The notes: generated from the letters alone by a model not told the origin. Shown: positions 21,190-56,061, counted from the stretch's first letter. The stretch is 64,000 nt of DNA from an uncultured delta proteobacterium (GCA_963745025.1 CAVUWD010000011.1:128001-192000), one strand, 5' to 3'. A program made the numbers and translations.

Positions 21190-21254
21190 GCGGTCGGTTG
21201 TGATCGGCCCGTACTCGGGTCGATCACAACCGACCGCAACCGCGCGGAGCGCGG
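21190..21254 (-). repeat. 65-bp double-hairpin element, copy A
   Basis: 22-bp arms 21190-21211 and 21216-21237 around TACT (1 mismatch), then AA and small hairpin CCGCGC-GGA-GCGCGG. Confidence 0.9.
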
Positions 21255-21348
21255 AAAACAATAACCCACCGAATCGGTTTGCGTCCTTTACAGTCGCTCC
21301 CGCTGGTCGCGACTCGTCTCCGATCAACCGAGCTACCGAGACTGCGTG

Positions 21349-21413
21349 CAGCGCTTCGCGCTGTTGCGCTTGGTTTTCATCGATCCGAGTACGGATCGAC
21401 GAAAACCAAGCGC
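21349..21413 (+). repeat. 65-bp double-hairpin element, copy B (inverted relative to A)
   Basis: CAGCGC-TTC-GCGCTG, TT, then arms 21366-21387 and 21392-21413 around AGTA (1 mismatch). Confidence 0.9.
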
Positions 21414-21531
21414 GCTTTTCGTAGCGTCGAGCACCCTGCTGAGGGGATCTCGGCGGCCGTCTTTGCGGTAGCCTCGGGGATCGGATACGCTATTCGGTGT
21501 CTGGCTTCCCTCGCGATGGAGGGTTCGAACG

Positions 21532-21771
21532 GTGTCCGAAGTTTCGCACGCTCGTCTGCTGCGTGACGAGTCCGGTCAGGCGATGACGGAGTACATCATC
21601 GTCGTGATCCTCGTGGCTCTGGCCGTGATGTTTTCGATGGGTCGATTCCATTCGGCGCTCGGGCGCAAGTATGGTTGCGCCTCGGCGCACGCGAGCAGGT
21701 TCGACGTCGACGACAAGAACTTCCCCCAGGGCGCGATACAGGAGAAGTGCACCGGCTTCGTCGAGAAGTGA
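21532..21771 (+). CDS. flp: Orphan Flp family pilin with two Cys
   Basis: RDESG|QAMTEYIIVVILVAL; GGAGG upstream of GTG; similar to the 16729 pilin in the N-terminal helix. Confidence 0.85.
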   Translation: MSEVSHARLLRDESGQAMTEYIIVVILVALAVMFSMGRFHSALGRKYGCASAHASRFDVDDKNFPQGAIQEKCTGFVEK

Positions 21772-21824
21772 GGAGCGGGGGCGGAGTAGACTCGGCGCTG
21801 CGGACCACGAGCCGCGGATACCGT

Positions 21825-23171
21825 TCAGGGAGAGGAAGCAGCCAGCTCCTCGAGGAACCTCGTGTGCGTGCTCCCCGCGCGGAAGCTCGGGTGCTCGAGG
21901 ATCTTCAGGTGGAGCGGGATGTTCGTCTTGATGCCTTCGATCGTGCACTCGGCGAGCGCGCCGCGCATGCGCTGCACAGAGTCGGCGCGGTCGCGGCCGT
22001 GTGCCACCACCTTGGCCACCAGCGAGTCGTAGTAGATCGGGATCGTGCAACCTACATGCAGATGCGTGTCGACACGGATCCCGAACCCGCCCGGCGGGAG
22101 GAACGCCGTCACCGTGCCGGGGCTCGGCAGCTGGGTTTCGGGGTCCTCGGCGTTGATGCGGCACTCGACCGCATGCCCGCGCGGCTGCACCGCATCCTGT
22201 GCGATCGACAGCGGCTCGCCGGCAGCTGCGCGAATGCTCTCCTGCACGATGTCGATTCCGGTCGTCATCTCCGTCACGGGATGCTCCACCTGGACGCGGG
22301 TGTTCATCTCGATGAAGTAGAAAGCGCGGTCCGGTGCGAGCAGGAACTCGATCGTGCCGACGTTGTTGTAGCCGACGACTTGCGCGGCCCGCACCGCGAT
22401 GCGGCCCATTTGGGCGCGCAGCGGCGGGTCGAGCGCGGGCGAAGGTGTCTCTTCGAGCAGCTTCTGGTAGCGCCGCTGGATCGAGCAGTCCCGCTCGCCG
22501 AGATGGATCACTTGCTTGTGCTGGTCGGCGACGATCTGAAACTCGATGTGGCGGGCTCGCTCGAGGTACTTCTCGACGTAGACCTGACTGTTGCCGAACG
22601 ACGCTTCTCCCTCGGCCTGCGCCACCTGGAACACGCGGACCAGCTCGGCGTCGCTCTTGGCGATCCGCAGCCCCCGCCCGCCCCCGCCCGCCGCCGCCTT
22701 GAGCAGCACGGGATAGCCGACGTCGCGGGCCACCTTCTTCGCTTCCTCGGCGTCGTTCACCGCTCCGAGCGATCCCGACAGCACGGGAATCTCCGCCCGC
22801 GCCATCATTTTGCGGGCGCGCGGCTTGTCCCCCATCAGCCGGATCGCGCGCACGCGTGGTCCGATGAACGTGATCCCCGAGCTCTGGCAGGCCTCCGCGA
22901 AGTCGCCGTTCTCGGAGAGGAAGCCGTAGCCGGGATGGATCGCATCGGCGCGCAGCGTCAGCGCCGCGCCGATGATCGCGGGGATGTTGAGGTAGCTCTC
23001 CTCCACGCTCGGCGGCCCGATGCAGACGCGCTCGTCCGCCATGCGCACGTGCAGCGCCTCGCGGTCCGCTGTCGAGAACACCGCCACGGTGGGCACGCCG
23101 AGCACGCGCGCGGCGCGGATGATGCGCACGGCGATCTCACCACGGTTGGCGACGAGGATCTTCCTGAACAT
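21825..23171 (-). CDS. accC: Acetyl-CoA carboxylase, biotin carboxylase subunit
   Basis: MFRKILVANRGEIA, HPGYGFLSEN, GGGGRG, ERDCSIQRR, EMNTRVQVEHPVTE, YYDSLVAK. Confidence 0.95.
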   Translation of the reverse strand: MFRKILVANRGEIAVRIIRAARVLGVPTVAVFSTADREALHVRMADERVCIGPPSVEESYLNIPAIIGAALTLRADAIHPGYGFLSENGDFAEACQSSGITFIGPRVRAIRLMGDKPRARKMMARAEIPVLSGSLGAVNDAEEAKKVARDVGYPVLLKAAAGGGGRGLRIAKSDAELVRVFQVAQAEGEASFGNSQVYVEKYLERARHIEFQIVADQHKQVIHLGERDCSIQRRYQKLLEETPSPALDPPLRAQMGRIAVRAAQVVGYNNVGTIEFLLAPDRAFYFIEMNTRVQVEHPVTEMTTGIDIVQESIRAAAGEPLSIAQDAVQPRGHAVECRINAEDPETQLPSPGTVTAFLPPGGFGIRVDTHLHVGCTIPIYYDSLVAKVVAHGRDRADSVQRMRGALAECTIEGIKTNIPLHLKILEHPSFRAGSTHTRFLEELAASSP

Positions 23172-23277
23172 CGGCTTCGGCCGTCCGCTACCCAGCGCGC
23201 CGGCTAGACTAAGCCACACTCCGCGGGCACCCTCAAGCGCCCGCGCTCAGCACCTCTGGAGCGGCGGCCGGGGGCGC

Positions 23278-24606
23278 TCACGAGGCGGAGAGGTATTCGA
23301 GCGCGGCGGCGGCTGCCCGCTCGCCGCTCACCACCGCGCTCTCCAACGTCGCCGGCAGGCCCGTGTCGGTCCAGTCGCCGGCGAGAAAGAGGTTGGCGAT
23401 CCTCGTGCGGGTGCCCGGCCGCAGGCGCTGCTCCGCCGGAGTGGCGGCGTACGTCGCGCTCGCTTCCTTCACGGCGAGCGCATCCGCGAGATCGAAGCCT
23501 CGAGTGTGCGGCAGGTAGCGGTCGACCGCGCCGCGAGCGATGCGCACGAGGTCTTCCACCGGCTCGCCCACCAAGCCGTGTGCGCCACTCGCCACCAACG
23601 TCAGGTACCGGCCGCGATCGGGCTGCATCGGCGGGGTGAACAGCCAGTGGATCGGGCCGTCGAGAAAGCCCGCCATGCGCGGAGCAGGAAAGGCCTCCCT
23701 GAACCAGAGATGGACCGAGACGATCGGCGACGGGCGAAGTTGGTCGAGCGTGGCGAAGCCTTCGGCCGCTCGCAGCGAATCGGGCAGCAGCGGCTCGAGC
23801 GCAGGAGGAGGAACCGCGAGTACGATCGCGTCGGCGTCGACGTCCGGACGTCCCTGCAGGGAGACGCGCACCGCCCGGCCGCCCTCCAGCACGACGCCGC
23901 GCGCGGAGGGGCCGGTCTCGACGGCACCGCCCGCCGCCTCGATCGCACGAGCAGCCGGCTCGGCGCAGAGATCGGACAGACCGACGCGCGGAAAGACGAT
24001 GCGCGAAGCGGCGGCCGGCGCGAAGAACACCCGGCGCAGCACCTCGGCGAACAGATCCGCCGAGGCGCGCTCGGGCAGCTCGTTCAGGACGGCGATCGCC
24101 AGCGGGTTCCAGAAGCAGGTGCACAGGTTCTGGCTCTGGCCGGCCGATGCGAGCGCCTGCGCCACCGTGACCGCGGATCCACCGCGGTAGCCGAGCGCGA
24201 TCCGCAAGCCACCCAGGACGAGCCGCAGACGCTCCCCCGGCGACAACAGCGTGTAACGCATGGCTCCGAGCGTCAGGTGCAGCGGGCTCGGCGCAGCGGC
24301 GCACCGAAAGGTCGCCGGGCCTCGCTCGGGATGCAGAAACGGCACGCAGAGCTGCGGCTGCACCTCGACGCGGTCACGCGCGCCGATGCGCTCGAGGAAG
24401 CCGAGCGTGGCGCGGTAGCAGCCCATGAGCAGATGCTGTCCATTGTCGACGGTGTGCCCCGCCTCGCGAGCGCGGTACGAGTAGGCGCGGCCGCCCAGCA
24501 CGGCGCGCTTCTCGATCAACCGTACCTCTGCGCCGCGCTCGGCAAGCCCGAGCGCGGCACAGAGGCCTGCCCAACCCCCACCCACCACCACGACGCGCTT
24601 CTTCAC
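23278..24606 (-). CDS. hpnE: Hydroxysqualene dehydroxylase HpnE
   Basis: FAD motif VVGGGWAGL, LGGRAYS, DNGQHLLMGCY, LAGDWTDTGLPATLESAV; GTG overlaps the restored hpnD stop (GTGA). Confidence 0.9.
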   Translation of the reverse strand: MKKRVVVVGGGWAGLCAALGLAERGAEVRLIEKRAVLGGRAYSYRAREAGHTVDNGQHLLMGCYRATLGFLERIGARDRVEVQPQLCVPFLHPERGPATFRCAAAPSPLHLTLGAMRYTLLSPGERLRLVLGGLRIALGYRGGSAVTVAQALASAGQSQNLCTCFWNPLAIAVLNELPERASADLFAEVLRRVFFAPAAASRIVFPRVGLSDLCAEPAARAIEAAGGAVETGPSARGVVLEGGRAVRVSLQGRPDVDADAIVLAVPPPALEPLLPDSLRAAEGFATLDQLRPSPIVSVHLWFREAFPAPRMAGFLDGPIHWLFTPPMQPDRGRYLTLVASGAHGLVGEPVEDLVRIARGAVDRYLPHTRGFDLADALAVKEASATYAATPAEQRLRPGTRTRIANLFLAGDWTDTGLPATLESAVVSGERAAAAALEYLSAS

Positions 24607-25458
24607 GGAGAGAGCGCTCCGATCCACATCGACGCCGCGAGCGCCGCCTTACGACTGCGCGACAGGCCGAGTCGGCGACCGAACACGAAGTAGCGCTCCT
24701 CCACAATGCGATCGAGCACCTCCTCGTAGGTGCGGCGCATGACTTCGGCCGGGCGAAGGCTCGCCGCGTCCTCGGGGGAGCAGCCGCTCGGCCGAACGGT
24801 AGTAGCGCCGCGCCCGATCGCTCTCGAACTCCATGAGCGCGACGAAGCGCCGGTTGTAGACGCCGCGCAAGACGTCCTCGGTGGGCACGCCGAAGCGGGC
24901 TAGGTCCTCCTCGGGCAGATACACGCGATCGCGCTCGGCGTCTTCCGAGAGATCCCGCAGAATGTTCGTCAGCTGAAGCGCGAGGCCCACGTCGACGGCG
25001 TACTCGCGGGCGCGTGGGTTCGTATACCCGAAGATCTCGATCGAGGCGAGGCCGACCGCAGAAGCGACCCTCCGGCAGTAGAGCTCGAGCTCGTCGAAGG
25101 TCGCGTAGCGGCGCTTGACGAGGTCCATCTCGACGCCGTCGATGACCGCCGCGAGCGCGGACTGCGGCACCGGAAACTGCTTGAGCGAAGCCGCCAGCGC
25201 AACCGTGACCGGGTGAAGCGGAGCGCCCTGATAACAGCGCTCGAGCTCGGCTCGCCACTCGCCGATCAGGCGAGGCGCGGCGGCGGGATCCGCCTCGTCC
25301 GCGGCGTCGTCCACGGCGCGGCAGAACGCATACACGGCATAGAGCGCATTGCGCCGCGCAGGCGGTAGCAGCCGCAGCGTGTAATAGAAGCTCGAAGCGC
25401 TTCGCCGGGCGACATCCCCGCAGAAGCGAAAATCGTTGGCGAGGTCGGTGTGGAGCAT
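24603..25458 (-). pseudogene. hpnD: Presqualene diphosphate synthase HpnD with frameshift at the G5 run 24774-24778
   Basis: SSFYY, YAFCRAVDD, YCRRVASAVG, LQLTNILRD; the C-terminus EDAASLRPAEVMRRTYEEVLDRI continues in another frame to a TGA coupled to hpnE. Confidence 0.8.
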
Positions 25459-25460
25459 CG

Positions 25461-26315
25461 CTACGCCCCCACCAACCCGAGCGTCAACAGACGGAGCTTG
25501 TCGCGTGCGGTGAGCCGCGGCCGGCATTCGACCGGCGAGTAGCCACCTTGCTCGAGGCGCTTCAGGATCGTCAGCCCTCCGCTCGCAAACATGCGCACCT
25601 CGCGCCCGACCCGCCGGTTCACGTGCTCGGCCAGCGGCAGGCCGCGCGCAAAGAGCTCGCGCGTGCGCTCGACCTCGAAGCGCACGAGCGAGCGCAACCC
25701 CTTCGGGCTCTGGCCTGCCTCCAGCGTGCCGCGGTTCACGTCGAAGCGCTCGAGGTCCTCCAGAGGCAGATACAGCCGGCCGCGGGCGAGATCCACGCCG
25801 AGGTCCTGCCAGAAGTTCGTGAGCTGAAGCGCCGTACAGATGTCGTCCGAGAGCCGCCAGAGGTTCTCGTCGCGGTAACCGAAGAGCGAGAGCACGAGCC
25901 TCCCGACGGGATTGGCGGAGTTGCAACAATAGTCGAGGAGATCCGCGAACGTCGCAAACGGCCGAAAGGCGGCGTCGTAGCGAAATGCCTGCAACAAATC
26001 GCGAAGCGGCTCGACAGGCAAGTCGCATTCGCGGATCGTCGCACCGAGCGCGACGAACACGGGATGCGTCGAGACCCCGCGCAGACATCCGTCCAATCGC
26101 TCCTCCCAGCAATCCAACCCTGCGAGCTTGTCGCCGGTCGGTAGATCCCCGTCCGCAATGTCATCGGCGAGCCGCGCATAGGCATACACCGCAGCCAGAT
26201 GCCGCCGCTTTGCGCGCGGCAGGAAGAGCGATCCGATGAAGAAGTTCTCGGGATGCGAGCGCGCCAAGCGCACGCAGTAGCGGAACGAGAGCTCGCGATC
26301 GATCGACGTCGCCAA
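25461..26315 (-). CDS. hpnC: Squalene synthase-like HpnC
   Basis: HPENFFIGS, YAYARLADDIAD, YCCNSANPVGRLVL, LQLTNFWQD. Confidence 0.9.
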   Translation of the reverse strand: MATSIDRELSFRYCVRLARSHPENFFIGSLFLPRAKRRHLAAVYAYARLADDIADGDLPTGDKLAGLDCWEERLDGCLRGVSTHPVFVALGATIRECDLPVEPLRDLLQAFRYDAAFRPFATFADLLDYCCNSANPVGRLVLSLFGYRDENLWRLSDDICTALQLTNFWQDLGVDLARGRLYLPLEDLERFDVNRGTLEAGQSPKGLRSLVRFEVERTRELFARGLPLAEHVNRRVGREVRMFASGGLTILKRLEQGGYSPVECRPRLTARDKLRLLTLGLVGA

Positions 26316-26556
26316 GGAGCTATCCCGACACCGACACCGACACCGCCGTCATCACCGCGGCCGTGCCGGCGCCAGGACCGACGACGGCGGTACTTCTGCG
26401 GATCCACGCCACGCGCCTTGGCCAGCCCGTCGAGCGAGAGAGACTACATCGGCAGATCGACACTGAGATTCTCGATTCCGACGTCTCGCATCGTTCGATC
26501 CATTTCCTCGGTGAATTCCCCGAAGACTCCCCTCACCCGGCGGTTCGCGCCAACCT

Positions 26557-28527
26557 CTACCCAGCCAGCGGGGCAACCGCGAGGCGCTCGGCGAACTGGC
26601 CGAGCGCCATCAGCGGGAAGTACGCGCGATACATCCAGTAGCGGAGGTAGAAGTGCCCCGGGAATCCGGTCCCCGTGAATTCGTCCTCGGCCCAGAAGCC
26701 GTCTTCGCCCTGGGTGCGCACGAGGTACTCGACGGCACGGACGAGCTCAGGGCTGACGCCTTGCTCCCCAGCGAGCAGGCCGAGAACCGCCCAGGCCGTC
26801 TGTGACGCCGTGCTCCGGCCCCGGCCCGCGAGCGACGGATCGTCGTACGAGCGGCAGTCTTCGCCGTAGCCGCCGTCGTCGTTCTGAACCGACTTGAGCC
26901 AACGCACGGCGCGACGGAGGGGTTCTCCACCGAGGTCTTCGCCGAGCGCCCGCAGTCCGGCGAGCACCGACCACGTGCCGTAGACGTAGTTCACCCCCCA
27001 GCGCCCCCACCACGCGCCGAACGGCTCCTGGGTGCGGCGCAAGAACTCGACGGCACGCGCGGCGCGCGGATCGTTCGCGTCGAAGTGATACGACCCCATG
27101 AGCTCGAGCATGCGTCCGGTGACGTCGGCGGTCGGCGGATCGATCATCGCTTTCATGTCCGCGAACGGAATGCGGTTCAGAAGATCGAGCGTGTTGTCGG
27201 TGTCGAACGCCCCCCAGCCGCCGTTCGCGCTCTGCATGCCGATCGTCCAGGTGAGGCCGCGCTTGATCGCGTCCTCCTTCCGCCGCGCCTCCGAGTGGCG
27301 GATGCGCCGGAGCACCATGAGGATCACCGCCGCGTCGTCGACGTCGGGATACCAGTCGTTGGCGAACTCGAACGCCCAGCCGCCTGGCTGTAACGTCGGG
27401 TTCTTGATCGACCAGTCGCCGGGCTTCTGAATTTGCTGCTCGACGAGCCACCCCGCCGCCTTGACGAGCGCCGGATGGTCTTCTGCCATCCCCGAGTCGA
27501 GCAGCGCCTTGGCGGCAAGCGCGGTATCCCAGACGGGAGACACGCAAGGCTGCGCGATCAGATGGCCGGTCGGGATCTCCATGAGGAAGTCGTCGACCGC
27601 CTGGATGCCCTTGGCGATTCCGGGATGGTCCGCGGGGTAGCCGGCGGCCTTGAGCGCCATCGGACCGTTCACCATCGGTGGCTGGATCCCGCCCCAGCCG
27701 CCGTTGCGGTCCTGGTGCTGGATCGTCCATTCGCAAGCGGCTTGGATCGCCCGGCGGCGCAGAGGATGGAACGGCAGCCGGTCCCAAAGCTTGAGCACGC
27801 GATCGGCGACGAGAAAGAAATTGTCGAGCGAGAACGTCGTGTACGGTCGGCTGACGTAGAGCTCGCCCGCGCGCGCAGGGTCGCGGTAGAGCTCACGAAC
27901 CGTGAAGCCTGCGGGGGTCTTGGCGCGGGGCCGAAACGCCATCAGCACGAGCAGCGGCACCACCGTACCACGCGCCCAGCTCGACATCTCGTAGATGCTG
28001 AAGCCGCTGCGCGGGGGCACGAACATCAGCTCGGGGGGCAACGTCGGCACCGCGGTCCACGGCACTTCGCCGAAGTAGGCGAGGAAGATCTTGCTGAACA
28101 CCCCCGCACGCTCGAGCCCACCGCGCTCGAGAATGAATCCGCGCGCCCGCTCGAGCACCGGATCGTTCTCCGCCGCGCCCATCAGGCGCAGCGCCGTATA
28201 CGCTTCGACGGTGACGCTCAGATGTCCCGGGCCGTTCTCGAAGAGCGGCCAGCTTCCCTCGGACTGCTGCGTCGAGCGGATGTGGGCAACCAGACGCTTC
28301 TCCACCTCCGGCCGCTCCCGCTCGAGGAAGCGATTGAAGAAGATGCACTGCGCGTCCATCGTGACGTTGGCCTCGAGCGGAGCGTGCCAATAGCCTTCGG
28401 AAGACTGGAGCGAGAGAAAGCGGTTCTGGGCGCGCTCAACCGCCTGCCGCACCCCGGCCGCGAGATCGGATCCCCCGCTTGCTTCTTCCGAGCGGAGCTC
28501 ACGCGCTTCCGCAATTCGATTTTGCAT
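26557..28527 (-). CDS. shc: Squalene-hopene cyclase
   Basis: DVDD catalytic motif (YPDVDDAAV), QW repeats, QPCVSPVWDT, WGVNYVYGT, FTGTGFP; AGGAGG upstream of ATG 28527. Confidence 0.95.
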   Translation of the reverse strand: MQNRIAEARELRSEEASGGSDLAAGVRQAVERAQNRFLSLQSSEGYWHAPLEANVTMDAQCIFFNRFLERERPEVEKRLVAHIRSTQQSEGSWPLFENGPGHLSVTVEAYTALRLMGAAENDPVLERARGFILERGGLERAGVFSKIFLAYFGEVPWTAVPTLPPELMFVPPRSGFSIYEMSSWARGTVVPLLVLMAFRPRAKTPAGFTVRELYRDPARAGELYVSRPYTTFSLDNFFLVADRVLKLWDRLPFHPLRRRAIQAACEWTIQHQDRNGGWGGIQPPMVNGPMALKAAGYPADHPGIAKGIQAVDDFLMEIPTGHLIAQPCVSPVWDTALAAKALLDSGMAEDHPALVKAAGWLVEQQIQKPGDWSIKNPTLQPGGWAFEFANDWYPDVDDAAVILMVLRRIRHSEARRKEDAIKRGLTWTIGMQSANGGWGAFDTDNTLDLLNRIPFADMKAMIDPPTADVTGRMLELMGSYHFDANDPRAARAVEFLRRTQEPFGAWWGRWGVNYVYGTWSVLAGLRALGEDLGGEPLRRAVRWLKSVQNDDGGYGEDCRSYDDPSLAGRGRSTASQTAWAVLGLLAGEQGVSPELVRAVEYLVRTQGEDGFWAEDEFTGTGFPGHFYLRYWMYRAYFPLMALGQFAERLAVAPLAG

Positions 28528-29431
28528 CCTCGACCTCCTGCGGAGTCCCCGAGCCGATCCGGGTGGAAAACGCATCGAAGCCCGCGGCGCGAAGCGCTTC
28601 GGCGACGCGCACGGCCGAAGAAGGAGCGAGCGCGATGATCACCCCTCCACCTCCCGCCCCCGACAGCTTGGCGCCGAGCGCGCCCGCGCCGCGCGCGACG
28701 GCGACCATCCGTTCGAGTGTCGGCGTCGAAACGCCGAACGCGTTGAGGAGCCCCTGCGCGGTGTCCATCAGCGTGCCGAAGCTCTCCCAATCGCCCGCCT
28801 CGAGGGCCTCTCGTCCCGCGCGGACGACGTCGCCCGCGAGCTGGAACAGGCGCCCGTAGAGCTCGGGCCGCTTCGCATGCCGATCGCGCAGACGGGCGAC
28901 CGGTCCCGCCGTGCTGCGCGGATCTCCGCTCATGCCGACCACGAGATCGATCGCCCGAGCGGGGCGCAGCGGCTCGATGCGCGGCGGATTCGAGCGCTCG
29001 AACCAGACGACGCCCCCCGATGCCGACGCCGCCACGTCGACGCCGGACGCCGTGCCGTGGAAGACGTCTTCCACACGGCTCGCGCGGGCGTGGATCTCTT
29101 GGTCGGATAGGGCGCGGCCGCTGAGCGACGCCAGGGCTCGAACCAACGCAAGGCTGAGAGCCGCCGAGCTGCCGAGACCGCAGGCCGGCGGGATGTCGGA
29201 CACAACTTCGATCGCGAGGCGTGCAGGGTCGAGCTCGAGATCATGCGCCGCCACCGCGACCGCGCGCTGGAATTTGGCGTCGGAGGAGGCGGGCGGGCCG
29301 CCGTCGAGCCGTACGCGCACCTCGAGACGGCGATCGATGGCCGCGGCGATCGCCGGCGCTCCGAACACGACGCTGTGCTCGCCGAGGAGGATGACCTTCC
29401 CGGGCGCGGAGGCGGACACGCTCGAGCTCAT
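28499..29431 (-). CDS. mvaK1: Mevalonate kinase
   Basis: APGKVILLGEHSVV, PPACGLGSSAA, HGTASGVD, KLSGAGGGG (GHMP kinase). Confidence 0.9.
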   Translation of the reverse strand: MSSSVSASAPGKVILLGEHSVVFGAPAIAAAIDRRLEVRVRLDGGPPASSDAKFQRAVAVAAHDLELDPARLAIEVVSDIPPACGLGSSAALSLALVRALASLSGRALSDQEIHARASRVEDVFHGTASGVDVAASASGGVVWFERSNPPRIEPLRPARAIDLVVGMSGDPRSTAGPVARLRDRHAKRPELYGRLFQLAGDVVRAGREALEAGDWESFGTLMDTAQGLLNAFGVSTPTLERMVAVARGAGALGAKLSGAGGGGVIIALAPSSAVRVAEALRAAGFDAFSTRIGSGTPQEVEDAKSNCGSA

Positions 29432-30621: not shown

Positions 30622-31673
30622 GACTCCTCTTCTTGGCCCCAACGCTCGAGCCGCGGCCCGAGCACGACCGGTTTCTTGCGGAGCTCTGCCAACGTGCGCG
30701 CGCCCGTCAGCACCATCGCCACGCGCAGACCCTCGATCGTCTGTTCCAAAAACGCGCCCGCCGTTTCGAGGCCGCCGGATCGATAGGCGCGAAACACCGG
30801 CAATGCGAAGCCGCAGATCTCGGCGCCGAGCACCAGCGCCTTGGCCGCGTCGAGCGCGTTGCGGATGCCGCCGCTGGCGATGCGCACGAGGTTCGTTCGA
30901 CGCAGCTGCACCAGCGACGCGGCCGTGGGAATTCCCCAGTCGCGGAAGAGCTCGCCGAGCGCGTGGCTGCGCGCGTCGCCGCGCAGATCCTCGACGCGAA
31001 CCCACGACGTGCCACCGGCGCCGGACACGTCTACGTAGCGCACGCCCACCTGCTCGAGCTGACGGCCGACCTTGGCCGAGATGCCGCACCCGGTCTCTTT
31101 GACGATCACCGGGATGGCGAGCTCCGCGACGATTCGCTCGAGCGCGCGGAGCCCGCCGGAGAACTTGCGGTCGCCCTCTTTCTGTACCAGCTCCTGCGCG
31201 GGATTGAGATGCAGGCAAAGCCCATCGGCGCCTACGATCTCGACGAGGCGGGCGATCTCGGCGCTCGCCGTCTCCGCCGCCTGGGTCAGGCCGAGGTTGG
31301 CCAGAAGCAAGGTGGTCGGCGCTTCGCGCCGCACGGAGTACGTCGTTGCGAGCTCGGGCCGGCGCAGCATCGCCCGCTGACTGCCCAGCCCGAAACCGAT
31401 GCCGAATTTTTCCGCGAGGCGGGCGAGATCGCGGTTCACCGCGGCCGCATCGGGTGTGCCACCGGTCATGCCGGTGATCAGGAAGGGGGCGCGAAGCCTC
31501 CGTCCGAGAAACTCGACCGACAGATCCACCTCGGCGACATCGACGCCGGAGAGCGAATCGTGGACGAATTCCACCTCCTCGAGAAGGGTCGTCTTCTCAC
31601 GATGCTCGACGTCGGCGCTCGCGCAGAGGTCGAGGTGCGAGCGTTTCCGGCGCTCGATCGACGCATCACGCAT
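30618..31673 (-). CDS. fni: Type 2 isopentenyl-diphosphate isomerase (FMN-dependent)
   Basis: RKRSH, ITGMTGG, GSQR, HLNPAQE, VKETGCG, GAGGTSW, SGGIR. Confidence 0.93.
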   Translation of the reverse strand: MRDASIERRKRSHLDLCASADVEHREKTTLLEEVEFVHDSLSGVDVAEVDLSVEFLGRRLRAPFLITGMTGGTPDAAAVNRDLARLAEKFGIGFGLGSQRAMLRRPELATTYSVRREAPTTLLLANLGLTQAAETASAEIARLVEIVGADGLCLHLNPAQELVQKEGDRKFSGGLRALERIVAELAIPVIVKETGCGISAKVGRQLEQVGVRYVDVSGAGGTSWVRVEDLRGDARSHALGELFRDWGIPTAASLVQLRRTNLVRIASGGIRNALDAAKALVLGAEICGFALPVFRAYRSGGLETAGAFLEQTIEGLRVAMVLTGARTLAELRKKPVVLGPRLERWGQEEES

Positions 31674-35035: not shown

Positions 35036-35079
35036 GCCATCCCAGCGGTGGAGGGATAGCGGGAGGGCGCGGGGTGTTG

Positions 35080-35133
35080 CAGCGCTTCGCGCTGGTGCGG
35101 TGCGGTCACCGAGTACGGCTCGACCGCAACCGC
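35080..35133 (+). repeat. Degenerate (shortened) double-hairpin element, copy C
   Basis: CAGCGC-TTC-GCGCTG, GT, GCGGTGCGGTCACCG-AGTA-CGGCTCGACCGCAACCGC. Confidence 0.8.
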
Positions 35134-45925: not shown

Positions 45926-45967
45926 AATAAGTCTTCGACAATAAGTCTTCGACAATAGGTCTTCGAC
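45926..45967. repeat. Three tandem 14-bp direct repeats in divergent promoter region
   Basis: AATAAGTCTTCGAC twice, then AATAGGTCTTCGAC. Confidence 0.9.
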
Positions 45968-48540: not shown

Positions 48541-48561
48541 GGCTCAAAAGGAGGATTGAGA

Positions 48562-50481
48562 ATGGGATCCAAAGGCTCTTGGGTTTCGCTCGCGCTGGCG
48601 GTACCGCTGGCGCTGGCGGCTCCCGCGCATGCCAAGCTCTCCAAAGGGGATCCGGCGCCGCCATTCGAGCTCACCAGCGTGGGCGGCGGTTCGGTGTCGT
48701 CGCAGACGCTGGCGCAGGGCGGCTTGGCGATTCTCACGTTCATCTCGCTCGACTCCAAGCCGTCGCGCGAGCTGGCCATCAATCTGGCGGGCCTTGCCAA
48801 GGATCATGAGAAGAAAGGCCTCACCGTGGTCGCCGTCGCCGCGGACAGCGCCGACAAGCTGAAGGAGTTCACTTCCGGACAGCAGCTCAGCTATTCGGTC
48901 TGCGCCGATCCATCCAAGGAAACGGTCAAGCGCTATGGCGCCGAGAACGTCGTGCCGATCACCTACTTGATCGCGCCGGGAGGTACGATCGCCGAGATCA
49001 TCCCCGGTGGGGGGGCCGGCGTGCAGCAGGTGCTGATCGCGGTCGCCGAGAAGGAATTCGCGCGTGGCAACACCTCTTCGGCGAGCCAACTCTATGCGCA
49101 GGTCGCCAAGGAGGACCCGAAGAACGTGAACGCGCGCGCCGGTCTCGGCTTCGCGTTGGCGAAGGAAGGCAAGCTCGAGCGCGCCGAGGAGGAGTTCAAG
49201 CGCCTCGAAGGCGCCGGAGCCGAGGGCGCCGCCGCGGCCTCGGAAGGGCTCGCCGAGGTGAAGCTGCGCAAGGGAGACCTCGACGGCGCGCTCACGCAGA
49301 TCGCCAAGGTGCCCCCCGACTCGAGCTACGGCCACGTAGTTCGCGGCGAGGTCGCCGCGCGTCGCGGCAATCTCGGCGAAGCGGCGAACCAATTCGAAGC
49401 GGCGACCACGGCGAAGCGTTCGACGTTCCCGTGGCAGCAAGGGGTCGCGTTCAACAACCTCGCCAACGTGTCGGGGCAGAAGGGAGACGCCGCGGCCGCC
49501 ATCAAGAGCTATGACAAGGCGATCAGCGCCGAGCCCTTCCTCGTCGAAGCGCGGAGCAACAAGGGCGCGGCGCTCCAGAAGGCCGGGCGCCTCGACGAAG
49601 CCAAGAAGACCCTCGCCTCGGCTCGAGCGATCGCTCCCTCGGATGAGCTCGTGGCGACGCTCCTCCGCCGCGTCGAGGAGCAGGAAAAGGCCAAGCTCGA
49701 CCTCGAGCGCGAAAAGCTGCAGAACCAGCTCGTCAACGAGCTCGTGGAGGCGTTTCGCAAGGGCAAGGCGGCGCCGCCTGCGGCCGACGACTGGTCACCC
49801 CGGGCTCTCGTGGTCTCGTTCCTCGACTTCCAGAACCGGCTCGGTCCGCTGGCACGCGAAGGTCTCGACGAGGCGTTCCTGTTGAACCTCACCCGGCGGC
49901 TCCAGGATTCCGGACGCCTCAAGGTCGTGGAGCGCGAGATCATCGACAAGCTGCTCTCCGAGCTGAAGCTCGGCTCGTCCGAGCTCGCCGACCCCTCCAC
50001 GCGGCTCAAGCTCGGCCGCGTGCTCGCGGCGTCGGTCATCGGCACCGGCGGCTTCTATCCGAACGACTCGAAGAGCGAGCTGCAGCTGCGGTTGATCGAC
50101 ACGGAGACGACCGACATTCGTTCGACCCTGGCGGACAACCTGAGCGATCCCGCGCAGGTCGCGACCTTCGCCGAACAGGTCGCGGACAAGATCGTCAAGA
50201 CGCTCAAGGCCGACTATCCTCTCAGGGGCAAGATCGCGTCGGTCGAGGGCGATGAGATCGTCGTCGGCGTCGGCCGCAAGCACGGCGCCCAGCAGGGACT
50301 CCGCTTCCGCGTGGTGGAAGACGGAGAGGCCGTCACGGTCGACGGCGAGGTGGTTGGTCACAAGCAGAAGACCGTCGGAACATTGGAAGTCACCAAAGTG
50401 GAGGACGGATTCGCCTACGCCAAGCCGGTCGATGGCGCGAGCTTCAAGAAGGATCAGCATCTGATCGAGGCCGCGCAGTGA
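48562..50481 (+). CDS. Exported protein: redoxin-fold domain lacking CxxC, TPR repeats, CsgG/TolB_N-like domain, FlgT-C-like beta domain
   Basis: AGGAGG SD; signal ending AHA; GDPAPPFEL...FISLDSKPS; LKVVERE...LKLGRVL. Confidence 0.78.
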   Translation: MGSKGSWVSLALAVPLALAAPAHAKLSKGDPAPPFELTSVGGGSVSSQTLAQGGLAILTFISLDSKPSRELAINLAGLAKDHEKKGLTVVAVAADSADKLKEFTSGQQLSYSVCADPSKETVKRYGAENVVPITYLIAPGGTIAEIIPGGGAGVQQVLIAVAEKEFARGNTSSASQLYAQVAKEDPKNVNARAGLGFALAKEGKLERAEEEFKRLEGAGAEGAAAASEGLAEVKLRKGDLDGALTQIAKVPPDSSYGHVVRGEVAARRGNLGEAANQFEAATTAKRSTFPWQQGVAFNNLANVSGQKGDAAAAIKSYDKAISAEPFLVEARSNKGAALQKAGRLDEAKKTLASARAIAPSDELVATLLRRVEEQEKAKLDLEREKLQNQLVNELVEAFRKGKAAPPAADDWSPRALVVSFLDFQNRLGPLAREGLDEAFLLNLTRRLQDSGRLKVVEREIIDKLLSELKLGSSELADPSTRLKLGRVLAASVIGTGGFYPNDSKSELQLRLIDTETTDIRSTLADNLSDPAQVATFAEQVADKIVKTLKADYPLRGKIASVEGDEIVVGVGRKHGAQQGLRFRVVEDGEAVTVDGEVVGHKQKTVGTLEVTKVEDGFAYAKPVDGASFKKDQHLIEAAQ

Positions 50482-50503
50482 ACGCAGACCCTCGAGGAAC
50501 GGC

Positions 50504-51244
50504 ATGAGAGCCGCTCTTCGCTCCCTACTGGTGGTGGTGAGCGTGAGCGGCTGGCTCGGAGCCTGCTCGACGGCGTCGAAAACGACGTCGGCTCCGCCCG
50601 CTCCGCCCGCTCCGCCGCCGAGCCTGCGGCGCCAGACCGTCGCGGTGTTTCCGTTCGCAAACGACGGAGTGGCCGGGCATGAACGGCTCGACTTTTTGCG
50701 CGATTGGCTCGCCGATTCGTTGGGGGCCTCGCTGCAGACATCCGGGGAGCTGCGAGTCGTCGAGCGGCGCGAGCTTCTCAAGATTCTCCAGGAGCAAAAG
50801 CTCGGGTCGTCCGCGCTCGCCTCGAAAGAGGGCCGCCTGGAGCTCGGAAAGATCGCCGGCGCCCAGACGCTGATCTTCGGCAATTTCGCCGCCGTCGGCG
50901 ACGGCCTGCAGATCAGCGCGCGCATCGTCGACGTCGAGAGCGGGGTGATTCTCAAATCATCGAGCGTGCACGGAAGCGTCGACTCGGCACGCGCGCTCGG
51001 AGAGGATCTGTCACGGCGCCTCGCGCACGACCTGGGCATCTCCATCGCGCGCGCGGCGCAGGCTTCGGGCGTGGCGGACGACCGCGCGCTGGCCGAAGCG
51101 GAGCTCTTCTACCAGGGGATGCGCCTCGAGAAGCAGGGAGAGAGCGATCGGGCGATCGAAAGCTACCGTCAGGCGTTGGCGATCGACCCCAACGACCGTG
51201 AGGCAAAAGAGCGCTTGCGGAAGTTGCTCAGTGCTTCGCACTGA
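50504..51244 (+). CDS. CsgG/HfaB/TolB_N-like lipoprotein with C-terminal TPR
   Basis: Lipobox LGAC; VAVFPFAN...LRVVERREL...LGKIAGA...ARIVDVESG. Confidence 0.82.
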   Translation: MRAALRSLLVVVSVSGWLGACSTASKTTSAPPAPPAPPPSLRRQTVAVFPFANDGVAGHERLDFLRDWLADSLGASLQTSGELRVVERRELLKILQEQKLGSSALASKEGRLELGKIAGAQTLIFGNFAAVGDGLQISARIVDVESGVILKSSSVHGSVDSARALGEDLSRRLAHDLGISIARAAQASGVADDRALAEAELFYQGMRLEKQGESDRAIESYRQALAIDPNDREAKERLRKLLSASH

Positions 51245-51277
51245 GGATATGTAACCGGCACCTCGGCAAGTAGCGGG

Positions 51278-51976
51278 ATGGCCACCGTGACTCTATACGC
51301 GCGAACCGACATTGGGCTCGTCCGCACCAACAACGAGGACAGCTATTTCACCGATCCCGAGCGATGCTTGGCGATCGTCGCCGACGGCATGGGCGGACAC
51401 GCCGGGGGCGAGGTGGCGAGCAAGATCGCGGTCGACACCATTTCCGAAGAGCTGAAGGGTCCAGGCTCGATCTGGCCTTTCGGACGCACGCAGCGCGAGC
51501 GAAATCGGATCGTCGAGTCGATCCGGCTGGCGAATCGGCGCGTTCGGGACGCGGCCCAGCAAGACACCTCGCTGACGGGCATGGGAACCACCGTCGTGGT
51601 CCTGTGGGTCCACGGCCGACGAGCTCACGTGGCCCACGTCGGCGATAGCCGCATCTACCGCTATCGCAGGGGAGGTCTCGTGCAGCTCACGCGAGACCAT
51701 TCTTGGCCTTCGGAAGAAGCGTCGATGCGGAACGTCTTGACGCGCGCGGTCGGCGCGGAGGACAATGTCGAGGTCGATCACCGCACGCTGGACGTGGTGT
51801 CCGGGGACATCTTTCTGCTCTGCTCCGACGGCTTGACGCGTCCGGTCGGAGACGACGGCATCGTGCGCGCGCTTCGGGATTTCAAGAACGGCGAGGAGGC
51901 GAGTCAGCGGCTGGTCGATCTCGCCAAAGAAAAGGGCGCGCCCGACAACGTGACGGTCGTGCTCGCGTACTGCTGA
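51278..51976 (+). CDS. PP2C (PrpC/Stp1-type) Ser/Thr phosphatase
   Basis: TDIGLVRTNNED, VADGMGGH, HVGDSR, LCSDGL, DNVT. Confidence 0.94.
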   Translation: MATVTLYARTDIGLVRTNNEDSYFTDPERCLAIVADGMGGHAGGEVASKIAVDTISEELKGPGSIWPFGRTQRERNRIVESIRLANRRVRDAAQQDTSLTGMGTTVVVLWVHGRRAHVAHVGDSRIYRYRRGGLVQLTRDHSWPSEEASMRNVLTRAVGAEDNVEVDHRTLDVVSGDIFLLCSDGLTRPVGDDGIVRALRDFKNGEEASQRLVDLAKEKGAPDNVTVVLAYC

Positions 51977-52704
51977 TGGCGAACCTGCCGTACTTTCAAG
52001 TCGAGGTCGGCGCCGAGCGTCAGCGATTCGAGATGCCCGAGGCGGAGCCGGAGGTGGTCGTCGGCCGGGCAACCGGCTGCCACTGGATCATCGCGTCGGG
52101 GGCCGTATCGCGCCGACATGCTCGGCTCGTCCGCCACGGTAGCGAGATCACGATCGAAGACCTCGGCAGCTCCAACGGGACGTTCGTCAACGGCGAACGG
52201 CTGAGCGCGCCGCGCGAGCTGCGCGATCAGGACCGCGTGCAGCTCGGCGCGGTCGAGATTCGCTTCGTGATGCCGCCAGAGGAGCCGAGTGCCGATGCGA
52301 CGATCGCGCTGAGCGCCCTGCCCAAGATCGCACCGGTGGCGCCGCCACCGACCACGCAACCCGTCGAGACCAAAACGGCGGGCGAGGCACCGGTCACAAG
52401 CGGTAGAGGAATCAGGACGCACACCCCGCCGGCGCCCCCGCCCCCCGCACCGATCCCGGAAGAGCTCCCCGCGGAGCTTCCGACTGCGACGCGGGCAGCC
52501 GAGACGCCCCCACCGCCGGAGCACGCTCGCGCGTCGCTGCCCGTTCCAGCTCCGGCGTCGCCCAGCGAGCGCTCGAAGTGGTCCGGTGCGTTTCTGGGAG
52601 GAGACGGCTCGAAACCGACGATCGCGGAGCTAGCCATCATCGCGGGAGGCAGCTTCCTGCTGGTGTTCGTGATCGGCGCTCTACTGATTCGATTCGTGTT
52701 CTGA
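51976..52704 (+). CDS. FHA-domain protein with Pro-rich linker and C-terminal TM anchor
   Basis: Start overlaps the PP2C stop (TGATG); VGRATGC...VSRRHA...DLGSSNGT. Confidence 0.88.
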   Translation: MANLPYFQVEVGAERQRFEMPEAEPEVVVGRATGCHWIIASGAVSRRHARLVRHGSEITIEDLGSSNGTFVNGERLSAPRELRDQDRVQLGAVEIRFVMPPEEPSADATIALSALPKIAPVAPPPTTQPVETKTAGEAPVTSGRGIRTHTPPAPPPPAPIPEELPAELPTATRAAETPPPPEHARASLPVPAPASPSERSKWSGAFLGGDGSKPTIAELAIIAGGSFLLVFVIGALLIRFVF

Positions 52705-52962
52705 CCTTCGAGCGAAATGAATCGAATGCTCGGAACGCGTCGAGCCCGCCCCTAGCGTAGCCGCGTCGCGAGCGCCCTCGGGATTCACTCGCGTTGCGGT
52801 CCGCAGCTTTGCCCGAAGAACCTTTCGTCCTCCGCTACCCTGGTCTTCGGCAAACGAGATTGCTCTCGTCCGCCGCCCGGGTCTCTATGGAAGTGAACCG
52901 ACGACTCTTCCAGCGGAACTCTCATCCGCTGGGCACCTGCGCCTTCGTAGCGCACTTTCGCT

Positions 52963-54051
52963 TCAAGGCCAGGCAAACGCGGCGTTGGCGATCTCGACCG
53001 CGGAAAGCACCTCGAAGCGCGCCTTGCCGATCGCTTCGAGACCAACGAACTTGATCTTACCCCCGCCGGCTTTCTTGTCCACCTCGACCGCGAGAGCCAG
53101 TTGATCGGCAGAGAGGTCGGAGGGAACCGCGGTCGGCAAGCCGAGACGGCGCAGCAACCCTTCGATTCGCTCCACGTCGGATCGCGGAAGCCACCCCAGC
53201 ACCTGCGATAGCCGCGCGGCACGAACCATCCCGATCGCGACCGCCTCGCCGTGCAGCAGTCGACGGTATTCGGTCAAGGCCTCGATTGCGTGGCCGAGCG
53301 TGTGGCCGAAATTGAGAATCGCTCGGTAGTCGCCTTCCCGCTCGTCCCGTTCGACGACCGTCACCTTCAGCCGGCAGGAGGTCGCGACGACCTCGCTCAG
53401 CAACGGCTCATCCTGACGAAGCACGGCGGGCACGTTGCGGTCGAGGCGAGCGAACAACTCGGCGTCCAGAATCGCGCCGTATTTCACCACTTCCGCCAGT
53501 CCGGCGACGTATTCGCGGCGCGCAAGACTCTTCAACGTATCGATGTCGATCGCCACCAGACGTGGCTGGTGGAAGGCGCCGATGAGATTCTTGCCGGATG
53601 CGTGGTTGATGCCCGTCTTGCCGCCGATCGAAGCATCGACTTGCGCCAGCAGCGTGGTGGGCACTTGGACGAAGGGTACACCGCGAAGGACGGTTGCCGC
53701 GGCGAATCCGGCGAGATCGCCGACCACGCCCCCGCCGACGGCCACGATCGGCGACGAGCGCTCGATGTGCGCCTCGATCAACCGATCGTAGACGAGCGCG
53801 AGCCACGCGAGGTTCTTGTGTTGCTCTCCCTCGGGGATCTGAATTTCGGCTACCGCGAAGTCGGCGGCCCGAAGCGAGGCGGCGACGGCCGGCACGTAGA
53901 GCGGTGCCACCCGCGAATCGCTGATCACGACCGCACGAATCGCCTGGCCGCCGACCGCCGCTCGCACGCGAGCGCCGATTCCGTCGAGCCAACCGGCGCC
54001 GATCAAGATCGGATAGGAACGGTCCCCGAGCGAGACGCGGATCTCCTGCAC
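52963..54051 (-). CDS. aroB: 3-dehydroquinate synthase
   Basis: GEQHK, GGGVVGDLAGF, PTTLLAQVDASIGGKTG, LNFGHTLGHA, HGEAV. Confidence 0.96.
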   Translation of the reverse strand: MQEIRVSLGDRSYPILIGAGWLDGIGARVRAAVGGQAIRAVVISDSRVAPLYVPAVAASLRAADFAVAEIQIPEGEQHKNLAWLALVYDRLIEAHIERSSPIVAVGGGVVGDLAGFAAATVLRGVPFVQVPTTLLAQVDASIGGKTGINHASGKNLIGAFHQPRLVAIDIDTLKSLARREYVAGLAEVVKYGAILDAELFARLDRNVPAVLRQDEPLLSEVVATSCRLKVTVVERDEREGDYRAILNFGHTLGHAIEALTEYRRLLHGEAVAIGMVRAARLSQVLGWLPRSDVERIEGLLRRLGLPTAVPSDLSADQLALAVEVDKKAGGGKIKFVGLEAIGKARFEVLSAVEIANAAFAWP

Positions 54052-54056
54052 GATCG

Positions 54057-54596
54057 CTACCTCGAAGAATTCCGGATTGGTAAGACTCGCGCGCCGGCCA
54101 GCCACTCGACGATCGCGTCGGCGACCTCCTCGGGGCTTCTTCGCGAGGTGTCGATGATCAGATCGGCATCGCCGTACGCTCCGGCGCGTTCGCCGAGCAG
54201 GCTCCGGATCCGCGCCTCGCGGCCATTCGCATCGGCGAGCAGCGGGCGATCGCGGCCGCTTCCGAGCCGACCGAGGATCGTATCGGGATCGGCCGTCAGG
54301 CAGACGAGCGTTCCCGAAGCCCGCATCGCGGCGCGGTTTCGGGAATCCACCACCGCGCCCCCGCCCGTTGCGATCACGGCGCTCTCGAGCGCGCACAATC
54401 GCTCCAGCGTTCGACGCTCCCGCGCGCGGAACTCCGCCTCGCCGAGGCGGTCGAAGATGTCGGCGACGCTCATTCCCGCCTCACGCTCGATCTCCACGTC
54501 GGCGTCGAGGAACGGCATGCCAAGACGCCGCGCCAGCCAACGCCCGACGAGGGTCTTCCCGGTCGCCATGAAGCCCGTGAGGAAGACGTTGTTCAT
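54057..54596 (-). CDS. aroK: Shikimate kinase
   Basis: GFMATGKT, GEAEFR, ATGGG, RPLL. Confidence 0.95.
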   Translation of the reverse strand: MNNVFLTGFMATGKTLVGRWLARRLGMPFLDADVEIEREAGMSVADIFDRLGEAEFRARERRTLERLCALESAVIATGGGAVVDSRNRAAMRASGTLVCLTADPDTILGRLGSGRDRPLLADANGREARIRSLLGERAGAYGDADLIIDTSRRSPEEVADAIVEWLAGARVLPIRNSSR

Positions 54597-54620
54597 GGAC
54601 GGACGTCCGCGCCGCTCGTC

Positions 54621-55784
54621 CTAGTAGCGACGGACCTGATCGAGATAGCCCTGGTAGTTCCGTCGGATCTCGAGCAGCGAGTCGCCGCCGAACTTCTCGA
54701 GAAACACGCGAGCGAGCTCGAAGGCGACGACGCTTTCGGCGATCACGGCCGCGGCCGGGATGGCGCACACGTCCGAGCGCTCGATCGCCCCAACCGCCTC
54801 GCGCTTCGAACGCAGGTCGACGGAGTGGAGCGGGCTCATCAGCGTCGAGAGCGGCTTGAACGCGACGCGGACGGTAAGCGGCGCGCCGCTCGTCATGCCG
54901 CCCTCCGTGCCGCCGGCATTGTTGGTGCGCCGCACGAACTCTTGGCTGCGCTCGTCGAAGAAGATCTCGTCGTGCACCTGCGATCCGGGCAAGCGCGCCA
55001 TGCGGAAGCCGAGCCCGATCTCGACGCCCTTGGCGGACTGCAGGCTGAGAAGCGCTCCACCGAGCCGACCGTCGATCTTGCGGTCGTAGTGGGCGTAGCT
55101 GCCGAGTCCGGGGGGTAGCCCGGTCGCCACGACCTCCACCACTCCGCCGAGCGTGTCGCCGCGCTCCTTCGACTGATCGATCGCGGCGATGATCCGCTGC
55201 TCGGCGGCGGCGTCGGCGACGCGGACGGCAGACGACTCGGCGCGCTCGAACACTTCTTCGGCGGCCAGGCGCGAATGGTCGGCCGCCACGGAGCCGATCT
55301 CCGCGACCCAGCCCATCACGCGAATGCCGAACGGCGAGAGCAGCTGCTTCGCCAGAGCGCCGACGGCCACACGGGTGGTCGTTTCGCGCGCGCTCGCCCG
55401 CTCCAAGACGTTCCGCACGTCGTCGTGGTTGTACTTGAGGACGCCGGCGAGGTCGGCATGACCGGGTCGAGGCCGCGTCACCGCGACGCTCGGGTCACGA
55501 TCGGCGGCTTCGGCAGACATTTTCTTCTGCCAGTTCTTCCAATCCCGGTTCTCGATCACCAGCGTGATCGGCGAACCCAGGGTTTCGCCCCAGCGGATTC
55601 CCGATTTGACGCCCGCCTCGTCCTTTTCGATCGCCATCCGCCCGCCGCGGCCGTATCCTTGCTGCCGGCGCCACAGGTCATGATTGATCGCGCCGACGTC
55701 GATCGGGAACCCTGCGGGGAGGCCCTCGACGATCGCCGTCAGGCACGGCCCGTGGGACTCTCCGGCGGTAAAGAAGCGAAGCAT
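54621..55784 (-). CDS. aroC: Chorismate synthase
   Basis: TAGESHG, RRQQGYGRGGRM, RPGHAD, ERASARET, RSDVCA. Confidence 0.96.
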   Translation of the reverse strand: MLRFFTAGESHGPCLTAIVEGLPAGFPIDVGAINHDLWRRQQGYGRGGRMAIEKDEAGVKSGIRWGETLGSPITLVIENRDWKNWQKKMSAEAADRDPSVAVTRPRPGHADLAGVLKYNHDDVRNVLERASARETTTRVAVGALAKQLLSPFGIRVMGWVAEIGSVAADHSRLAAEEVFERAESSAVRVADAAAEQRIIAAIDQSKERGDTLGGVVEVVATGLPPGLGSYAHYDRKIDGRLGGALLSLQSAKGVEIGLGFRMARLPGSQVHDEIFFDERSQEFVRRTNNAGGTEGGMTSGAPLTVRVAFKPLSTLMSPLHSVDLRSKREAVGAIERSDVCAIPAAAVIAESVVAFELARVFLEKFGGDSLLEIRRNYQGYLDQVRRY

Positions 55785-55898
55785 GGGGAACTTCACTGTC
55801 TAACGAAATCCAGCAAGCAAGACAAACCAGCAGATGGCCTCCATGCCTTCCATGCCTTCCGTCTCTGCCATGTCACGAGCGTGCGCCGTGATCACAGC

Positions 55899-55963
55899 GG
55901 TCGAGCTTCCGGTCGAGCCGTACTCGGGTCGACCGGAAGCTCGACCCACCGCGCGGAGCGCGG
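55899..55963 (-). repeat. 65-bp double-hairpin element, copy D
   Basis: Arms 55899-55920 and 55925-55946 around TACT (1 mismatch), CA, CCGCGC-GGA-GCGCGG. Confidence 0.9.
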
Positions 55964-55996
55964 AAGGCAATGCCCAACGGCGCGACGCGAGCCGTT

Positions 55997-56061
55997 CCGC
56001 GATTCGCGCGGTTGCGCTTGTTGGTGTTCGAACCGAGTACGGCTCGAACACCAACAAGCGC
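55997..56061 (+). repeat. 65-bp double-hairpin element, copy E (inverted relative to D)
   Basis: CCGCGA-TTC-GCGCGG, TT, arms 56014-56035 and 56040-56061 around AGTA (1 mismatch). Confidence 0.9.

Follow-up and report, generated by a model that had tools for sequence, protein, structure and literature searches.

Among the closest described systems is MITEPsy1/ISPsy2 of P. syringae, in which a MITE (miniature inverted-repeat transposable element) derives from an insertion sequence (IS). As described (PMC3189936), MITEPsy1 is short, non-coding, present in many copies, biased toward intergenic sites and polymorphic; its terminal inverted repeats (TIRs) are near-identical to the TIRs of a co-resident IS, and its target duplications have the length typical of that IS. 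The same features are found in a family of double hairpins, five copies of which lie in a 64,000-nucleotide stretch of DNA from an uncultured delta proteobacterium (GCA_963745025.1, CAVUWD010000011.1:128001-192000; hereafter the window). We conclude, at a probability of roughly 0.85, that each double hairpin is an inner module of a non-autonomous MITE of about 240–305 bp with ends of the IS66/ISBst12 type. The composite differs from the 100-nt MITEPsy1 in its greater length, in an interior made of two diverged mirror halves that each carry a 22-bp hairpin and a mini-hairpin, in the co-existence of at least ten lineages with compensated arm changes, and in sharing no more than 15–19 nt of its end with the IS.

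The ends relate the family to a second described group. In two reports, ISDge4 of the ISBst12 group has the TIR GTAACTGCTCAGCA and an 8-bp direct repeat and encodes one transposase of 449 aa (PMC12898284), and IS66 inverted repeats begin GTAAGCG... (PMC12888890); our outline of IS66/ISBst12 family features draws on these two papers and on ISfinder background. The ends described here (GTAAnGCCTCAGTC) likewise begin GTAA and continue ...CTCAG.., and 8-bp direct repeats are common to both. An IS in the same genome has the single large DDE_Tnp_IS66 open reading frame (ORF) of the ISBst12 group (468 aa, compared with 449 aa in ISDge4), whereas the MITE appears to encode nothing. We found no description of an IS66-derived MITE in the literature searched; the MITE reported in PMC12888890 has a 4-bp repeat that bears no relation to IS66 ends.

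Repetitive extragenic palindromic (REP) sequences and their doublets, REPINs and bacterial interspersed mosaic elements (BIMEs), offer a third comparison, as intergenic imperfect palindromes arranged as inverted doublets. Y and Z REPs pair in fixed combinations in BIMEs, much as several arm types do here, and head-to-head doublets resemble REPINs. The family described here differs from these in its target duplications and TIRs, in halves of ~125 nt, and in that the Y1 transposase genes of the genome are not flanked by copies.

Organization of the composite element

The genome of the window (G000) comprises 5.65 Mb in 20 contigs (C6, C8, C11 and so on) with 65.9% G+C. From 58 genomic copies of the hairpin module we constructed a covariance model, R1, and applied it to the window with filters off. 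It returned exactly four intact copies and one decayed copy, the best unrelated match scoring 16.8 bits (E 0.062). Together with direct reading of the sequence, this confirms the five positions given in a preliminary description of this DNA. The features in the window are as follows.

21138–21145, no strand: left flanking 8-mer CGGCGGGT, candidate target-site duplication (TSD) of composite 1; identical to the right 8-mer at 6 of 8 positions in fixed register
21146–21450, no strand: composite 1, putative MITE of 305 bp made of two head-to-head halves; ends GTAACACCTCATTC... and ...CTGAGGGGATCT
21190–21254, minus strand: left-half double-hairpin module of composite 1; R1 match 21186–21267 (−), 101.8 bits
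21349–21413, plus strand: right-half double-hairpin module of composite 1; R1 match 21336–21417 (+), 83.7 bits
21451–21458, no strand: right flanking 8-mer CGGCGGCC of composite 1, from the flank comparison
35071–35133, plus strand: decayed solitary half-element; R1 37.3 bits, gapped alignment
55850–56115, no strand: composite 2, putative MITE of ~266 bp; right end GAACTGCAGGCCTTAC; left end CCATGCCTTCCGTCTCTGCC degenerate, boundary approximate
55899–55963, minus strand: left double-hairpin module of composite 2; R1 match 55895–55976 (−), 92.4 bits
55997–56061, plus strand: right double-hairpin module of composite 2; R1 match 55984–56065 (+), 77.3 bits

Each of the four intact copies is 65 nt long and, read on the AGTA-loop strand, consists of a 6-bp mini-hairpin (CMGCGM-TYC-GCGCKG), 2 nt, and a 22-bp stem formed by two 22-nt arms around an AGTA loop (TACT on the other strand). 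Each long stem contains a single mismatch, as first described; three of the four read as A.C along the AGTA strand and as G.T along its TACT complement, and the fourth is C.C. In composite 1, the left module contains a 48-nt hairpin of arm type A (21190–21237, GCGGTCGGTTGTGA...) and a mini-hairpin at 21240–21254, and the right module a mini-hairpin at 21349–21363 and a 48-nt hairpin of arm type B (21366–21413, GCGCTTGGTTTTC...); the center of this composite holds an extra 68-nt spacer. In composite 2, the left hairpin is of arm type E (55899–55946, GGTCGAGCTTCCGG) with its mini-hairpin at 55949–55963, and the right mini-hairpin (55997–56011) is followed by a hairpin whose arm is near type D (56014–56061, GCGCTTGTTGGTGT). 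The decayed half at 35071–35133 retains an intact mini-hairpin and a long hairpin with internal deletions, and no partner half was recognized for it.

The family is abundant throughout the genome, as expected of the dispersed repeat with fixed geometry that had been proposed. A scan for hairpins with an AGTA loop and a stem of 16 bp or more gave 90 matches, nearly all of them family members, and a looser hairpin scan gave 97 members. R1 listed at least 150 scored candidates, and nhmmer gave 165 matches that reduce to 156 non-redundant half-elements. A crude codon-bias script, which called genes at 77% coding density and makes all such counts approximate, places 95 of the 97 hairpins between genes.

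The half-element is ~125 nt long. From the center of the composite outward, it consists of a 13-nt head (GGKYTATTG...), the 6-bp mini-hairpin, the 22-bp (48-nt) hairpin and a lineage-specific tail of ~45 nt that ends in a terminal repeat (...AAGACTGAGGCnTTAC, also written ...AGACTGAGGCnTTAC). The head and the common end ...rAGACTGAGGcnTTAC are present in all arm types, and each arm type has its own conserved ~45-nt 3′ flank. There are about ten named arm types plus singletons (19 clusters), and copies within a lineage are nearly identical. Arms therefore mark lineages, each with its own tail and a consistent partner type, and the suggestion that the variable arm might be guide-like finds no support.

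Halves occur predominantly as pairs. In 64 cases, accounting for 128 of the 156 halves, two halves lie head to head in (−,+) orientation, with the heads 6–9 nt apart in 53 of the 64; a partner-end motif is still present on the head side of 8 of the 28 unpaired halves. The paired halves are of unlike arm types in fixed combinations (A+F in 28 of the 64 pairs, D+H in 5). The outer ends of the composite form inverted repeats (GTAAnGCCTCAGTCT; GTAAnGCCTCAGTCTT...) with the consensus GTAA(T/G/C)GCCTCAGTCTT on both sides, derived from per-position counts over 62 ends. Composites measure 218–368 bp between located ends, mostly 240–280 bp. They are small and apparently non-coding. A representative copy of 254 nt is predicted to fold at −160 and −145 kcal/mol on its two strands, with the ends paired, two long hairpins and a central helix in the predicted single-strand fold. 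The 65-bp unit is thus an internal module, and the mobile unit is the head-to-head pair. The preliminary description, which took the 65-bp unit as the element, overlooked this greater length, the pairing, the inverted ends, the target duplications and the variability of the apex.

The hairpin can be lost by internal collapse or deletion while the flanks persist, as seen at C11:110932, C8:227765, C6:460151 and C16:686624. We also observed a type C hairpin at C11:466686–466767 with tail-like sequence on both sides and neither mini-hairpin nor head, which looks like a palindromic rearrangement of a half-element.

Insertion sites, ends and a candidate mobilizer

Target duplications were assessed by comparing the 8 nt just outside each end, in fixed register, for the 44 composites with both ends located; pairs of left and right flanks taken from different elements served as the null. 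The flanking 8-mers are identical at all eight positions in 6 of the 44 composites, at seven in one and at six in one, compared with never, 0.1% and 0.6% for the mismatched pairs. In composite 2 the flanking 8-mers agree at only 2 of 8 positions, and from these poorly matching flanks it may be read as an old insertion.

Evidence for insertion also comes from C19:255k. Here G001, a sister species in the same genus, has a clean empty site (...gcgtcgTTTGAAGATcctcc...) with a single copy of the repeat TTTGAAGAT, which is present as two copies flanking the element in G000. The same site is polymorphic in sediment metagenomes. Contigs of 1516 and 538 nt from two of four runs, ~97% alike, join position 1364 to 1625 and so skip 260 nt, with 9 letters fitting both sides, and contigs from the other two runs enter the element; filled and empty alleles therefore both occur in nature. 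Taken over the flank test, the empty site and the metagenome contigs, the duplications are 8–9 bp long. The composite thus inserts as a unit, makes 8-bp target duplications and is polymorphic both between species and within environmental populations, which bears out the proposal that the family is mobile.

The other three of the four sites compared with G001 give older or less readable histories. The copy in G001 at C19:59.7k has been reduced by internal deletion, with both ends and one tail still in place, indicating that this insertion is older than the split of the two species. Composite 1 is absent from the orthologous position in G001, where the flanks are poorly conserved and no junction is readable, and composite 2 is absent from the orthologous intergenic site, where the DNA is unrelated or poorly conserved and leaves no clean junction.

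Near the C19:255k site, metagenome contig depth rises 10–70-fold over ~200 nt of coding region (L043 ~610–830; G000 C19:254295–254515), and the peak shows many joints and loose ends. The peak probably marks a domain that is repeated or widely conserved, that other organisms share and that has no connection with the MITE.

A search for the end motif away from hairpins identified three copies of an 1882-bp IS66-family element.

C6:484414–486295: IS66-family element, 1882 bp, first copy of a tandem pair
C6:486304–488185: IS66-family element, 1882 bp, second copy of the tandem pair
C19:80230–82111: IS66-family element, 1882 bp

The TIR of this element is GTAAGGCCTCAGTCTCCGT, and the C19 copy (L057:616–2497) is flanked by an 8-bp duplication, AACGATCG. 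All three loci encode an identical 468-aa protein with matches to DDE_Tnp_IS66 (PF03050; 131 bits, cut-off 23.1) and to zf-IS66 (29.4 bits, cut-off 27.3). An upstream ORF of 105 aa is also present and falls just below threshold for DUF6788 (27.0 bits, cut-off 27.2). Judged by these proteins and termini, the genome's own IS is of the IS66/ISBst12 type, with ends matching those of the MITE: the MITE end consensus agrees with ~14 of the first 15 nt of the IS TIR. In the right place and orientation, 36 halves are within two mismatches of the IS TIR over 15 nt, and 62 of the 156 halves are within three. An IS66-family DDE transposase would most likely bind the shared ends and move the MITE in trans, and the different arms would represent MITE lineages that had already separated when the two species split.

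The two copies at C6:484414–488185 (L055, L056, L073) are identical and lie in direct tandem, 8 bp apart (CTTCTGGA). These 8 bp recur after the second copy, and the first has a different left flank. The pair could be a tandem-dimer transposition intermediate or the result of an insertion beside an existing copy.

Several observations weigh against an IS66-type MITE mobilized by this IS. No transposition was directly observed. At fixed register, 36 of the 44 composites lack a convincing duplication; the repeat is shifted by 1–2 nt in at least three of these 36 and one lineage clearly ends farther out than the motif used, and the missing duplications would fit decay or misplaced ends. In 94 of the 156 halves no end lies within three mismatches of the IS TIR, similarity to the IS covers only the first 15–19 nt, and neither the hairpin module, the mini-hairpin nor the head motif was found inside it. 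The MITE family is older than the species split, whereas the three IS copies are identical and therefore probably recent. In G001 the 468-aa query detected only IS66-family transposases that are 31–32% identical to it, and at one of the three copies (L074) no GTAA..CCTCAG-like ends or inverted repeat of at least 12 nt was found within 700 nt of the ORF. In G005, which belongs to another genus of the same family, the 468-aa query gave no IS66 match in an assembly that, like that of G001, is 82–84% complete.

Constraint on the hairpin stems

The long stems are strongly compensated. In the alignment of 58 copies, 93.9% of cells are paired, compared with 76.7% in column shuffles (none of 500 shuffles reaches the observed value), and sliding the partner by 1–3 columns reduces pairing to 28–42%. 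Changes on both sides occur in 15 of the 22 long-stem pairs. The covariation glimpsed in the four window copies thus holds across the genome. Pairing is interrupted by a recurrent imperfection 4–5 bp from the loop, where the two pairs concerned are unpaired in 29 and 17 of the 58 copies.

The apex is less constant than the window copies had suggested. AGTA is the commonest loop, present in 93 of 146 good hairpins, with AGCA, AATC and AATA among the others, and the apex is not conserved in G005; a constant protein-binding apex is therefore not supported. The geometry itself is better preserved: the 22-bp stem, the mostly 4-nt loop and the 2-nt spacer are maintained in ten or more lineages and also in the second genus, where the loops are different. 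Within lineages defined by tails alone, stems differ from their lineage consensus at 3.6% of sites (100/2816), about half the value for tails (7.2%, 139/1920), and loops at 9.8% (25/256); the copies are related, so that this is not a clean test.

Over all good hairpins, A.C or C.A mismatches outnumber G.T or T.G (152 versus 46) on the AGTA strand, which accords with the earlier suggestion of G-U pairs as an RNA signal on the TACT strand. However, 83 of 275 mismatches fall at one apex position (position 5) and are read as inherited, and private single changes in tight lineages show no strand bias (22 A.C and 21 G.T). The excess thus belongs to one apex position. We infer that the stem constraint acts on DNA rather than on an RNA made from one strand. 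The hairpins would then be DNA-level palindromes, kept either for a need in cis or through template-switch self-correction, and not as an RNA guide.

One of these two possibilities is that the palindromes are neutral and self-correcting, with template switching copying changes between arms and broken hairpins being lost. This explanation concerns the hairpins only and is compatible with a MITE; we hold it tentatively, at clearly less than even odds. It would account for the symmetry of private mismatches and for the conversion of the inherited apex mismatch to a base pair in seven copies. Two hairpins (C11:74279–74360 and C12:80556–80636) are flipped with respect to their flanks, with a TACT loop where AGTA is expected and the apex mismatch swapped, and recombination or template switching between palindrome arms would produce such an inversion. 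The hairpin-collapse derivatives described above point the same way. However, the apex imperfection persists in most lineages, and geometry held across at least ten lineages and a second genus is more than mutational bias predicts.

Alternatively, the internal palindromes could be cis-acting parts needed for spread or genomic survival, for example hairpins or cruciforms that extrude from single-stranded DNA at replication forks and recruit or position an IS66/ISBst12-type transposase, or bidirectional insulators, with the fixed pairing of unlike arms selected because identical halves would delete each other. We consider this unlikely, if worth keeping in view. The last element is speculative: identical halves would amount to 44-nt direct repeats 70 nt apart.

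Selection of the hairpins as a structured RNA (a small RNA, an mRNA stabilizer or a bidirectional terminator) appears improbable. The predicted folds are very stable, stems diverge less than tails and loops, and the mismatch excess on the AGTA strand would also suit an RNA. A T-rich sequence follows the hairpin in arm type B, but most subfamilies have no T-run. In the region 20900–21700, which includes two of the four window hairpins, a terminator scan limited to 20 stem pairs per hairpin listed neither long hairpin, and a search for sigma-70-like promoters gave nothing; this is a weak test. The tail faces the 5′ end of a gene 53 times and the 3′ end 44 times and so shows no orientation preference, private changes carry no strand bias, and at least four hairpins have collapsed or been deleted while their flanks persist. 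The family has no Rfam match: at the gathering score the window returned only a group II intron, and a whole copy searched at E ≤ 1 gave MIR1151 at 28.7 bits (gathering 90) and P17 at 12.8 bits (gathering 45).

The genome encodes two Y1_Tnp (IS200-like HUH) proteins that could be relevant to a substrate for an HUH/RAYT-like or other single-stranded DNA nuclease, as had been proposed. Their ORFs (C13:187852–188877 and C11:419236–420429, both on the minus strand; L001 and L002) span 342 and 398 codons, carry NHFH and RYIHLNP motifs and score 39.7 and 36.5 bits (Pfam, cut-off 23). In one of the proteins there is also a weak match, below cut-off at 23 bits, to a DnaA-C-like helix-turn-helix. The nearest half-elements lie 27 kb away on C13 (C13:215668) and ~5 kb away on C11 (C11:414212–414380 and 425878). 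Y1/HUH transposition is not known to make target duplications, so the duplications argue for a DDE transposase over an HUH enzyme. A REP/REPIN-like family of paired hairpins moved as single-stranded DNA by one of these Y1 transposases is accordingly very improbable: it would suit the head-to-head imperfect palindrome doublets, the helix-turn-helix and a conserved imperfection 3–5 bp from the loop, the kind of feature that hairpin-binding enzymes read, but it is opposed by the 8-bp duplications and inverted terminal repeats, neither of which Y1 enzymes are known to leave, by ends that match a DDE-type IS, by the distance of the Y1 genes from any copy, and by halves far longer than REP sequences. 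The AAC/GTT ends of attC sites are absent, as noted earlier; the arms begin GC or GG and end GC or CC in the 58 copies, and an integron integrase was not searched for.

Distribution and implications

R1 was searched over 41 genomes including G000. G001 has 38 matches and G005 has five (these two assemblies are each 82–84% complete), and the other 38 genomes, which include five of the same family and several assemblies that are 65–84% complete, have none. The arm types of G000 recur in G001, with the halves paired in the same way. The mini-hairpin, outer stem and terminal repeat are preserved in the G005 copies, which differ in apex and loops (AAAAAG-type). An exact-pattern scan that covered one genome per species, and may have excluded the genome of the window itself, returned one further record, a metagenome-assembled genome (MAG) of an uncultured delta proteobacterium, two loci of which are identical in sequence to G001 loci. 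The family is restricted to one genus plus a relative, abundant and recently mobile.

Within the window, composite 2 lies between a chorismate synthase gene (54624–55796, minus strand) and a YkuD-domain gene (56136–57458, minus strand). The group II intron is a D1-D4-4 match at 52789–52931 on the minus strand (66.7 bits, gathering 49), just downstream of a 3-dehydroquinate synthase gene (52966–54396, minus strand). Three minus-strand ORFs further downstream (51907–52524, 51296-72 and 49798–51045) have no Pfam match and no reverse transcriptase was seen among them; the intron may be ORF-less or fragmentary.

The interpretation offered in the preliminary description is partly supported: this holds for a mobile repeat family and not for an HUH substrate, a guide arm, an RNA signal or a constant apex. 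The family is thereby taken off the list of candidate new single-stranded DNA or RNA elements bearing a guide-like arm and placed among the MITEs, with ends of the IS66 type. As a mobile repeat it is fairly ordinary, with an interior that is unusually structured, regular and hairpin-rich. It comprises ~64 composites plus remnants in a 5.6-Mb genome. Annotators of these uncultured deltaproteobacterial MAGs can mask the family, and its insertions are usable as strain markers, since sediment metagenomes contain the filled and the empty allele side by side. The compensated 22-bp stems of at least ten lineages constitute a data set for asking whether MITE palindromes are selected or self-correcting. 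If the palindromes are cis-acting, their naturally occurring compensatory stem variants would form a series in which the poorly known mechanism of IS66-family transposition could be studied.

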